Assembly (NCBI GenBank): GCA_016281405.1
Contig: JAEEIO010000160.1
Coordinates: 1 to 34,745 of the forward strand
DNA length: 34,745 nt
Source of the DNA: Clostridiales bacterium
GTDB taxonomy: Bacteria; Bacillota; Clostridia; Oscillospirales; RGIG5299
Direction: 5' to 3'
Shown: one piece after another, positions 1 through 4,062 of the stretch
Layout of the letters: the number at the start of each line of letters is the position of its first letter
How positions within the stretch are numbered: the first letter of the stretch is position 1
Translations under genes and position numbers: made by a program
The notes under the pieces: generated by a model
Database searches by the model: none
Seen by the model: the letters and a program-made list of their open reading frames with translations, nothing else
Told to the model about the DNA's origin: nothing

Positions 1-1
1 A

Positions 2-159
2 ATGATGAGCCTCCCTTCGGTCGCCATGATGATTTGCGGTTTCACCGCAAAATGATGAAATGAGTTCCGCTTCATGCGCCGAAGGCGCTCATCATTCGGC
101 GAAGCCGTTCATCATGCGCGAAAGCGCTCATCATGTGCCGCACAAGCGGAACTCATCAT
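2..159. repeat. REP-like hairpin array: TCATCAT/ATGATGA heptamers alternating with GC-rich GAA/GAAA-loop hairpins; probably truncated at the window edge
   Basis: ATGATGA at 2, 26, 52; TCATCAT at 89, 109, 128, 153. Hairpins: TTTGCGGT-TTC-ACCGCAAA (33-51), GCGCC-GAA-GGCGC (76-88), CGGC-GAA-GCCG (97-107), GCGC-GAAA-GCGC (116-127), TGTG-CCG-CACA (134-144). Perfect 13-bp outer inverted repeat ATGAGTTCCGCTT (60-72) / AAGCGGAACTCAT (144-156). Confidence 0.85.
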
Positions 160-162
160 CGG

Positions 163-1095
163 TTATTCGGCGGTCACGCTGAGATTTTTGAAGGACATTT
201 CATGGGTGAAGTTGCCCGAGACCTCGGTGGAAATATAGAAGTTCTGAAGGGCGAGGTCGTCGGCCGTCGTATTCTCGAAGACCTTATGCTTTTTCGCGGC
301 CTCGAGCGCTTCGGCGACGACGGCTTTCAGTTCGACGGTTATCTTATGCCAGTTGCCGTCGTGCATTGAGGAGTCGAGGTAGGCCTTCATATTGGGGCAG
401 TAGATGACGGTGTCGGTGGCGCCCTCGAATCCGCTGTCGACCATAGAGGTCCTGGGAGGGATTCCGAAGCGGTCGTCGAAGACTCTGACGCCGAGCCAGA
501 TAAAGCTGCCGCAGTCATCCGACTGTTCGTTGACGTTTCTCAAAATGAAATAGATATTGGTCTGGGCGCACATAATGTTACGGTTATACTCCTCTGGCGT
601 CATGTGGTTTATAAGCCGGTCGTTTCTCGCCTCGAAGGAGAGGGTCAAGGCGTTATAATCGGTCATTTTAATGTCGTTATCGAAACGCTGTTCGAACATG
701 AGGTGGACCCACGGGTCGGAGGTTTTGGTGCGGACGGTCTCGTATTCGTTGTCGCAGTAGAGCGCGAAGTTAAGGACCGAGGCGCCGTTTTCGTCTTTAT
801 AAACGCGGACCTTTTTGCCCTCGTTTTCGTAGACGACTTCCGTGTCGCTCGATGAGACGAGGGAGTCTCTTTTCATTATGAATCGGCTGTTGTTCTGGTG
901 CATGAACCAGACGCGCTCGCCGTCGGTGGAAAAGGTCCGCAAAAAGCCTATGGACGAGCCTTTGTTGAAGAGCATGAAGCCGTTTTTGAAATCGCAGTCT
1001 TTTAACAGATTGTTCATTTTATTACCTCCGTTGCATGATGAAAGTATTAAAGCGAGGGCGGTTATTACCGTTACGAGCAGGGCTCTTTTTTTCAT
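163..1095 (-). CDS. Hypothetical lipoprotein, 310 aa, last gene of the ROK-ThuA-oxidoreductase operon
   Basis: MKKR + hydrophobic stretch + lipobox LSSC (Cys21). Starts 1 nt after the upstream gene's stop. No family recognised. Confidence 0.8.
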   Translation of the reverse strand: MKKRALLVTVITALALILSSCNGGNKMNNLLKDCDFKNGFMLFNKGSSIGFLRTFSTDGERVWFMHQNNSRFIMKRDSLVSSSDTEVVYENEGKKVRVYKDENGASVLNFALYCDNEYETVRTKTSDPWVHLMFEQRFDNDIKMTDYNALTLSFEARNDRLINHMTPEEYNRNIMCAQTNIYFILRNVNEQSDDCGSFIWLGVRVFDDRFGIPPRTSMVDSGFEGATDTVIYCPNMKAYLDSSMHDGNWHKITVELKAVVAEALEAAKKHKVFENTTADDLALQNFYISTEVSGNFTHEMSFKNLSVTAE

Positions 1096-3102: not shown

Positions 3103-4062
3103 TTATTTGAGCGTTCTTTTTGCGAACATAGCGGCGCCGATTATCCCGGCGTCGTTTCCGAGCGTCGCGCGGGCGATATGGGGTACTTCTATGATGCCGG
3201 CCCCGAAGCTGTTTTCGGCGACGTATTTTTTAATGGGGCCTATGAGCCGCTCGCCCTCGTTTGAGATGCCGCCGCCGATAAGAATTATCTGCGGGCGGAA
3301 TACGTTTGTGAGGTCTATAAGACCTTCGGAGACGTAGCTTATATATTCGTCGGTGACGGCTTTGGCGACCGGACAGCCCTGTTCGGCGGCGTTGAAAACC
3401 GTCTTGCCGTTTACCGTTTCGGCCTCGGCGACCATTTTTGCAAGCAGAGAATCGGGGTGAGCCGCCGCTTCCTCCATCGTCCGCTTTATAAGAGCGCTGG
3501 CGGAGGCGTAGGTCTCCCAGCAGCCGCGCCTGCCGCAGGAGCAGAGGTTGCCGCCGTGGTTGACGACGATGTGTCCGAGTTCGACGCCTCTTGAGCGGCC
3601 GCCCTCGTAAAGCTCGCCGTTAATGACTATTCCGCCGCCGACGCCCGTGCCGAGCGTTATCATAACTACGTCGGAATAACCTTTGGCCGCTCCCGCCACA
3701 ACTTCGCCGAGCGCGGCGCAGTTGGCGTCGTTGGAGACGGCGACGGGGCGGTTGATGCGCTTCTGTATCTCGCCCGCGAGGCAGACGTTTATCATGTCCT
3801 TAAAGTTGAAGGCGGCTATGACGGTGCCCGTCTCGGAGTCGATGACGCCGGGGCTTCCGATACCTATGGAAGCGACGTTGCTAATACTTATTCCGTATTC
3901 GGCAACGGCGCTTTCGATACATTTTATAATATTTGAAATTACCGTCTCGACGCCTTTGTCGGCCTCGGTCTTGACGGTGTATTTGTAGAGCAGTTTGCCG
4001 TAAACGCTCACTATGCCGACGGCTATCTTGGTGCCGCCGAGATCAACTCCGATGTAATACAT
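3103..4062 (-). CDS. ROK family sugar kinase (glucokinase-like)
   Basis: GVDLGGTKI ATP motif, NDANCAALGE, TLGTGVGGG, ELGH and Zn motif CSCGRRGCWE; no N-terminal HTH; GGAGG RBS. Confidence 0.93.
   Translation of the reverse strand: MYYIGVDLGGTKIAVGIVSVYGKLLYKYTVKTEADKGVETVISNIIKCIESAVAEYGISISNVASIGIGSPGVIDSETGTVIAAFNFKDMINVCLAGEIQKRINRPVAVSNDANCAALGEVVAGAAKGYSDVVMITLGTGVGGGIVINGELYEGGRSRGVELGHIVVNHGGNLCSCGRRGCWETYASASALIKRTMEEAAAHPDSLLAKMVAEAETVNGKTVFNAAEQGCPVAKAVTDEYISYVSEGLIDLTNVFRPQIILIGGGISNEGERLIGPIKKYVAENSFGAGIIEVPHIARATLGNDAGIIGAAMFAKRTLK

Follow-up and report, generated by a model that had tools for sequence, protein, structure and literature searches.

The stretch of DNA considered here, hereafter the window, corresponds to positions 1-34,745 of contig C208 in genome G000, a 1.7 Mb assembly in 208 contigs that is 89% complete and has a GC content of 54%. 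At its left extremity the window carries an array of short heptamers interspersed with hairpins (Table 1), which is separated by 3 nt from the stop codon (163-165) of a minus-strand open reading frame (ORF); the product of this ORF has a lipoprotein-like signal peptide and returned no Pfam match. A preliminary description of this DNA had reported seven ATGATGA/TCATCAT heptamers in opposed orientations, situated just beyond the stop codon of a lipoprotein-like ORF, and both the coordinates of the heptamers and the distance to the ORF were confirmed. The array holds seven of the nine matches to this motif in the whole 34.7-kb window, and since none of 100 shuffled windows reached nine matches (mean 1.73, sd 1.22), a chance origin of the heptamers was excluded. 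The hairpins between the heptamers were likewise found as reported, i.e., with stems that differ in sequence while pairing is kept, and with a degenerate first spacer. A CRISPR array is excluded by the 7-nt repeats with their palindromic spacers, and the preliminary description was also right in holding that the element is not a simple terminator.

Table 1. Coordinates of the array and of the neighbouring ORF in the window.
Feature	Position	Strand	Remark
Open arm, truncated by the contig start	2..58	+	three of four ATGATGA heptamers present
ATGATGA heptamers	2-8, 26-32, 52-58	+	pattern matches
Degenerate spacer of the open arm	9-25	+	
Open-arm hairpin	33-40/44-51	+	8 bp, TTC loop
Long-range closing stem, 5' strand	60..72	+	ATGAGTTCCGCTT
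Closed arm	76..134	+	three short hairpins, a TCATCAT after each (89-95, 109-115, 128-134)
Closed-arm hairpin 1	76-80/84-88	+	GAA loop
Closed-arm hairpin 2	97-100/104-107	+	GAA loop
Closed-arm hairpin 3	116-119/124-127	+	GAAA loop
TCATCAT heptamers (complement of ATGATGA)	89-95, 109-115, 128-134, 153-159	+	pattern matches
Local alternative hairpin	138..149	+	CCGC-ACAA-GCGG, 138-141/146-149
Closing stem, 3' strand	144..159	+	144-156, overlaps the last TCATCAT (153-159)
Right end of the element	159	+	contig of DNA run X1 with different sequence left of 159
Neighbouring ORF	163..1095	-	310 aa, lipoprotein-like signal peptide

The first 160 nt of the window are predicted to be highly structured, both as DNA (z = -6.06) and as minus-strand RNA (-69.5 kcal/mol, z = -4.72), and in neither case did any of 200 shuffled sequences fold as well. 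The long-range inverted repeat of 13 nt (60-72/144-156), which had been proposed to close the right-hand hairpins into a multi-way junction, is 100% complementary and its equivalent covaries in relatives, but it is left unformed in the minimum-energy DNA and RNA folds of the window, in which the left heptamers pair with the right ones. The closing stem and the local hairpin at 138-149 are mutually exclusive, because the 3' strand is common to both. The portion that resembles a catalogued motif (see below) is the minus strand of the closed arm.

The suspicion that the array runs off the window was borne out by other copies in the same genome. ATGATGA-family arrays occur at eight loci in G000 and homologues exist elsewhere, so that the element is not a single-copy curiosity. 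With the copy on contig C86 as reference, those at the end of C8 and on C71, C157, C159 and C208 (the window) are 93-99% identical to it, while two divergent copies, on C120 and at C8:2170-2352 (C8b), are 82-84% identical. Five of the eight copies lie at contig ends, as is expected of an assembly-breaking repeat. Since the complete copies have a fourth ATGATGA and hairpin on the left, the full array measures 181 nt. It consists of an open arm of four ATGATGA units, each with a 7-8-bp hairpin, and a closed arm of three units, each made up of a 4-5-bp hairpin and a TCATCAT, which are bracketed by the 13-bp stem and followed by a fourth TCATCAT as the last element. A long form of ~355 nt (C86, C120) has in addition a conserved module of ~140 nt with a terminator-like hairpin in front of the array, and a palindromic hairpin centred on TTAA after it; C8b is an array without the module. 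The right-end hairpin is present in C86 and C159 and absent from C71 and from the window copy.

Of note, a 15-nt motif recurs in direct orientation at the two ends of the long form (C86, L002 1366-1380 and 1664-1685; also L257), one occurrence being contained in a perfect TTAA-centred palindrome; the motif is reminiscent of a core site used in site-specific recombination, albeit with no linked recombinase. In the C8b copy (L006 1495-1510), the upstream ORF takes its stop codon from the first heptamer. RTGA, a start codon overlapping TGA, is common to all heptamer classes, and the arms therefore offer stop codons in several frames from either side. Heptamer arrays of other classes are also present in G000, namely ATGATAT (C138, C57 and twice on C80), GTGAAAT (C197, C202) and CTTCACT (C205).

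The preliminary description regarded the element as undescribed, a view that its relatives do not support, as these belong to the Rfam family Gut-1 (RF01706). An Rfam search of the window returned nothing at threshold, and the best match was to Gut-1, on the minus strand at 64-137, with 19.7 bits (E 0.62) as compared to a gathering threshold of 50 bits; the match to a described family is thus only partial. A full copy of the element (L002) also scores 19.7 bits, and matches of the window to C/D-box snoRNAs were dismissed as noise caused by the heptamers. Two loci with a left module like that of the G000 copies, L048 and L043, whose arrays use a GTGATAT heptamer, score 53.6 and 48.2 bits as Gut-1, respectively. 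Furthermore, a covariance model (R1) of 21 closed arms from other genomes, containing no G000 or G036 sequences, matched the window over its full length at 55-162 on the minus strand, with 22.0 bits and a rough E-value of 0.0078; no second match was present in the window, and elsewhere in the 56.9 kb searched the model matched arrays only. The window copy also exhibits three short hairpins split by a repeated UGA-containing heptamer, as Gut-1 does. It is on account of the intermediates L043 and L048 and of the R1 match that the window array is filed as a divergent Gut-1 subfamily, and its score falls below the Gut-1 threshold because its heptamer is AUGAUGA and not GUGAAAU. As judged from sequence, then, the window array is a divergent subfamily of Gut-1 and not a member of the Rfam family as currently modelled, and what is new here is the ATGATGA heptamer variant of the catalogued motif.

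The Gut-1 RNA motif was described by Weinberg et al. 2010 (Genome Biol 11:R31; PMC2864571), who list it as certainly RNA and not cis-regulatory, and as known only from human gut metagenomes. A literature search by the name or accession of Gut-1 returned the original paper and one structure-prediction benchmark, and no functional work. The Gut-1 model has matches in 67 of 151 genomes of the order, in 50 of them above threshold; the matches total 756 across the 151 genomes, with up to 29 scored per genome. A homologue search of 41 genomes returned only G036, which belongs to another family, with 17 matches of ~72% identity; the heptamers of G036 are all GTGATGT on one arm and ACATCAC on the other. 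Three genomes of the same genus as G000 gave no clear match to the element. A pattern search for the left module in species-representative genomes returned 16 stretches, four of them real, from gut-derived assemblies of Clostridia and Acutalibacteraceae.

The architecture of the window copy is shared by its relatives. All 38 parsed elements consist of one long-spacer arm beside one inverted short-spacer arm: the former has spacers of 16-20 nt with 7-bp hairpins and usually four heptamers, the latter has spacers of 9-15 nt with 4-5-bp hairpins and three heptamers plus a degenerate or perfect fourth. In five array-rich genomes nearly all arrays found by pattern were paired in this manner, and a reversed-pattern control yielded 0 matches. 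Heptamers are identical within one element, and three or four heptamer classes coexist per genome. An equivalent of the closing stem, perfect over at least 8 bp, is present in 35 of 37 elements in at least eight different sequences, and a local hairpin of at least 4 bp that shares one strand of the closing stem occurs in all 37 relatives. RNAalifold applied to 21 closed arms predicts the closing stem, with changes on both sides at eight of its 11 pairs. Nearest-neighbour folding nevertheless prefers a ladder, in which left and right heptamers are paired and the hairpins branch off as four-way junctions, over a fold in which the closing stem is forced, by 0.5 to 18.5 kcal/mol in five subfamilies. 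In these models the heptamer ladder and the closing-stem fold are each compatible with the conservation seen.

The composition of stems and loops bears on the question of which nucleic acid is folded. A structured non-coding RNA, i.e., a Gut-1 small RNA or a 3'-UTR element made from the minus strand with or after the upstream gene, which might serve to bind proteins or to protect the 3' end from exonucleases, would be in keeping with the strong covariation in the hairpins and in the closing stem and with the strong predicted fold of the minus-strand RNA. Against such an RNA, the stems are nearly all Watson-Crick, and wobble pairs are nearly absent: of ~620 pairs in 125 different spacers, 4 are G-T and 9 are A-C. 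The stems also hold 15 T-C or C-T mismatches, equivalent to tandem G-A on the other strand. An asymmetry in wobble pairs was considered as a guide to the folded strand and abandoned, the wobble pairs being too few. When read in the orientation of the heptamer, loops of the form T..C account for 21 of the 34 hairpins with short spacers and 43 of the 70 with long ones, and those of the form G..A for none of the 34 and one of the 70. Because this bias follows the orientation of the heptamer, the favoured purine-rich loops fall on opposite physical strands in the two arms, and consequently no single transcript has favoured loops in both arms, which again argues against the RNA.

The genomic context was analysed for the 30 Gut-1 loci with the highest scores, each from a different genome. 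In 17 of them the array is preceded, on the same strand, by a tRNA or tmRNA gene that ends at a distance of 32-45 nt, and in 20 such a gene lies within ~400 nt; the genes are of many kinds, and a terminator hairpin is all that separates them from the array. Where loci were inspected, the closed arm is the first part of the array to be met on reading out of the upstream gene, and this also holds for the lipoprotein-like gene of the window and for C8b (C8:2170). At the latter two loci, no terminator intervenes between stop codon and array. The apparently constant orientation relative to the upstream gene, with the closed arm facing the gene's end, and the uninterrupted passage from gene into array at these two loci, with a terminator following the far end of the long form, fit a role as RNA. 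The same may be said of the contigs of three RNA libraries from two studies that hold positions 1-159 at a depth of 4-10 as compared to ~2 for pieces of the gene, although these contigs represent a multi-copy repeat, carry no information on strand or ends and may include DNA, and of the rating of Gut-1 as certainly RNA in PMC2864571. In complete units elsewhere, however, the array is enclosed between a terminator and the next promoter, which leaves no room for a promoter of its own. In view of the evidence from stems, loops and context, an RNA function of this kind seems to us rather unlikely, if still a serious contender.

Several side observations pertain to the surroundings of the arrays. 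The same 8-bp terminator stem, flanked by A/T runs, adjoins the array at six loci (L062, L063, L066, L068, L085 and L107), each in a different genome; in four of these it is next to different tRNAs or tRNA-like ends, and in two no tRNA is called nearby. It occurs with two heptamer classes, and the version at L087 has one compensatory change. The terminator hairpin thus seems to travel with the array. Stretches of ~110-140 nt that resemble a tRNA 3' end, terminate in CCA and are not called as tRNAs were seen between real tRNA genes and the arrays at L059, L061 and L063, where they adjoin the terminator of the array, and at G000 C138 (~3330-3450). At L107 (G001:C25:33700-36400), three complete arrays follow one another in tandem at a spacing of ~615-710 nt, with small membrane-protein ORFs on the same strand between them, and this cassette-like row ends at a tRNA-like sequence. 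A likeness to a tRNA T-arm was noticed in the module behind the open arm (L062 ~1700-1730; L087 ~1700-1725), and at L087 it is the T-arm of the adjacent tRNA-Tyr that is resembled, as far as the T-stem extends. The likeness was considered as evidence that the element integrates into tRNA genes and is retained as an observation only, there being no match to the neighbouring tRNA beyond the T-stem.

The position behind tRNA and tmRNA genes in 17 of the 30 top loci, and behind protein genes in G000, would also suit a punctuation element that is selected by the host and has no dedicated protein, i.e., a two-way terminator, an insulator or a supercoil-absorbing block, built of palindromes behind strongly transcribed genes and spread by recombination and not by transposition. 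The bracketing terminator hairpins, a symmetry that would serve transcripts arriving from either side, and the small genomes with few mobile-element enzymes are all consistent with such an element. Left unexplained by it, however, are the identity of the heptamers within each element and the coexistence of several classes, as well as the tight link and co-variation with a four-helix-bundle gene described below. It is equally at odds with the canonical copies, which are alike nearly base for base while lying beside different tRNAs in genomes of different families. We therefore consider a protein-free punctuation element improbable.

The preliminary description had guessed at a four-helix-bundle protein as a possible neighbour, and such a gene is indeed linked to complete copies in other genomes. 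The corresponding family (TIGR02436/PF05635) is represented by PF05635 matches in 58 of 67 genomes with Gut-1 as compared to 13 of 84 without, an odds ratio of 35; the Fisher p-value for this association is overstated, since the genomes are related and do not constitute independent samples. Of 20 evenly sampled PF05635 loci, 17 fall into two related subfamilies, and inspection showed a two-armed array directly upstream of the gene in every one of these (a script detected it in 14 of the 17, and at L079 as well). The other three loci represent a different subfamily, which has tandem 8-mers and no hairpin arrays. Among the 12 top-scoring PF05635 loci, which are mostly of unlinked kinds, Gut-1 was nearby in two. 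Four or five contiguous tandem 8-mers were observed ~60 nt upstream of the PF05635 ORFs at L249, L250 and L265, and short repeats upstream of the gene may characterise the four-helix-bundle family more generally.

Locus L079 exemplifies the arrangement of a complete unit: a tRNA-Arg gene is followed by a terminator, the closed arm, the open arm, a promoter, a 115-aa TIGR02436 gene and a MazG-like gene. The predicted promoter (TTCACA-17-TATAAT, 11 of 12 matches) begins right after the last heptamer, and the encoded protein is close to PDB 2RLD (five chains; E 1.9e-30). Linked genes score 101 and 82 bits to TIGR02436. Complete units elsewhere run in the same manner from terminator hairpin through array and promoter to the Avd-like gene, which is often followed by a cargo gene. 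Furthermore, protein identity tracks heptamer class (TGAAG, TGATG, TGATAT, TGAAAT) across host families, a co-variation of heptamer class and protein class that could be plain linkage.

Arrays outnumber genes, with 29 scored Gut-1 matches as compared to three genes in G001, 14 to one in G111, and at least 15 array loci to one PF05635 gene in G000. The sole PF05635 gene of G000 (C11:3-224) has its N-terminus cut by the contig start and carries a TGATAT-class signature; a gene cognate to the ATGATGA copies is absent from the assembled, 89%-complete genome. No four-helix-bundle gene lies downstream of the three ATGATGA copies that can be read through (C86, C120 and C8b). In the cassette at L051, the Avd-like gene is followed by a small ORF and then by a conserved 3' module with a terminator, and it is this module that is fused to the long-form arrays of G000. 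The ATGATGA copies are accordingly gene-less derivatives, in which the module of the gene-bearing L051 is joined directly to the array, or the array stands alone. As a separate observation, the Avd-like gene of G000 overlaps a SAM-methyltransferase-like ORF (C11:1-900, L246) in a stretch that is AT-richer than the 54% GC genome, which suggests that this region is an acquired cassette.

Several observations speak for mobility of the element. Near-identical copies occupy unrelated sites in G000, and the distribution across genomes is patchy; the closely similar canonical copies beside different tRNAs, mentioned above, point the same way. At C86, C120 and L043 the two halves of a terminator-like stem flank the element, an arrangement suggestive of insertion into the loop. 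In run X1, a DNA run, the contig of the element has a depth of 75.9 as compared to 5.1 for the flank, and an 824-nt contig joins positions 159-258 to a different left sequence, from which it follows that the element is absent from the window site in the X1 population; the alternative left flank was not found in G000. No consistent target duplication was seen at C8b, C86 or C120, where the ends are inverted at the level of the heptamers only, and there are no sharp common ends, these varying among recent copies. A DNA search for empty sites in the same-genus genomes yielded one 66-nt match, and these genomes are too diverged for the comparison to be informative. The canonical element had no blastn match in reference phages and plasmids. 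In a pattern scan of IMG/VR, only L139 and L168 of 80 loci among the matches listed passed a strict test; L120 has a head-to-head heptamer pair, and the remaining listed matches are chance or other repeats.

As to the enzyme responsible, the preliminary description pointed to HUH proteins, i.e., to a REP/REPIN- or PATE-like single-stranded DNA element that would be moved by a Y1 transposase of the RAYT or IS200/IS605 kind. The multi-copy extragenic palindromes, the conserved motif beside each hairpin and the inverted arms would all agree with this, and DNA triloops of the GAA type with a closing C-G pair are very stable. The comparison with REP/REPIN elements holds in the broad sense of a multi-copy, structured, extragenic repeat. 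The enzyme itself, however, was not found: the Y1 transposase (PF01797) has 0 matches in G000 and none in the array-rich genomes G002, G007, G016 and G036, and across the order it is present in 23 of 67 array-bearing and 23 of 84 other genomes (odds ratio 1.4), i.e., without enrichment in the former. Moreover, IS200/IS605 elements use one strand for both ends, whereas the arms of the present array mirror each other on opposite strands. Movement by an HUH transposase is therefore highly improbable.

IS110-family transposases occur in none of five array-rich genomes, G000 included, and serine recombinases in two of five, with none in G000, G002 or G111. Reverse transcriptase, which had also been named as a possible neighbour, was encountered in just one of the five. 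A single tyrosine recombinase is encoded by G000 and is uninformative as a partner; it was noted in a comparison with integron attC sites, which was considered for the head-to-tail, cassette-like units. The 115-aa helical bundle is itself unlikely to be the enzyme that moves the element.

Taken together, the position of the array after a terminator and before a promoter, the almost exclusively Watson-Crick stems and the mirror symmetry of the loops lead us to the reading that, on balance, the array probably works mainly as DNA, as a multi-site platform for a four-helix-bundle protein that would serve propagation, gene control, or both. Each heptamer with its hairpin would form part of a putative docking platform of two-fold symmetry, which is probably read on extruded or single strands, and its user would be the cognate four-helix-bundle protein. 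The window copy is probably a passive, non-autonomous derivative without a gene, MITE-like relative to its parent. As it directly follows the lipoprotein stop codon, before the expected terminator, it is probably co-transcribed as a very stable 3' structure, which would be a side effect.

A more specific version of the DNA platform, which we put forward tentatively as possible and not as probable, holds that the arrays are docking sites of pentameric Avd-like proteins with class-specific heptamers. Array and gene would in that case constitute a self-propagating cassette that has no enzyme of its own and uses the host machinery, settling behind tRNA, tmRNA or other genes and shedding gene-less arrays, and Gut-1 would be a DNA element and not an RNA gene. 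If this is true, TIGR02436/PF05635 gains its first function outside diversity-generating retroelements.

The catalogued Gut-1 motif corresponds to one arm of a two-armed, two-fold symmetric element, of which genomes throughout an order of gut and rumen Clostridia each contain tens of copies. Two orphans, Gut-1 (in Rfam since 2010) and the four-helix-bundle family, hereby become one testable pair, for which the prediction is that swapping the heptamer should abolish binding of the protein. For purposes of annotation, it is relevant that the arrays break assemblies and that they can be mistaken for small RNA genes or terminators.

Among known systems, Gut-1 shares with the element three short hairpins, a TGA-containing heptamer between them and an occurrence in gut Clostridia; in contrast, the Rfam model comprises the three hairpins without the closing stem, the inverted second arm, the multi-copy nature or the link to a gene. 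REP, BIME and REPIN sequences with their RAYT proteins are short extragenic palindromes with a conserved flanking motif, arranged in inverted groups in many copies, and REP-type units lie mostly behind genes and are co-transcribed. The present arrays are similar in being multi-copy extragenic palindromes in inverted pairs, with palindromic units, a conserved motif and a location mostly behind genes; they differ in the absence of a RAYT/Y1 enzyme, in their ordered 4+4 arrangement with a closing stem and in the linked four-helix-bundle gene.

MITEs, such as Correia, BOX and RUP, are gene-less, multi-copy derivatives that retain the two ends of a longer parent. In a comparable manner, the gene-less long form keeps the array and module of the gene-bearing L051, the left end of the window copy being cut, and the two kinds of element share a multi-copy and assembly-breaking nature, insertion polymorphism and the carriage of terminators. 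Unlike MITEs, the arrays exhibit no terminal inverted repeats beyond the heptamers and no target duplication, and no parent transposase was found.

The linked gene is a clear member of the family (PF05635/TIGR02436; PDB 2RLD) that includes Avd of diversity-generating retroelements and the proteins of 23S rRNA intervening sequences. In intervening-sequence elements, too, a gene of this family is accompanied by flanks that form stems, next to genes for stable RNAs. The present system differs from diversity-generating retroelements in that reverse transcriptase was not found in four of five array-rich genomes and no template or variable repeats were seen, and from intervening sequences in that the arrays lie behind tRNA genes and not inside rRNA. 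Finally, iterons and the ends of Tn7 and Mu present a repeated short protein-binding motif on DNA, for which hairpin spacers are not required. The arrays resemble these in having copies of a motif about two helical turns apart, on inverted sides, with a motif that varies between relatives, and they differ in that the spacers of Gut-1-type arrays are conserved hairpins with biased loops.
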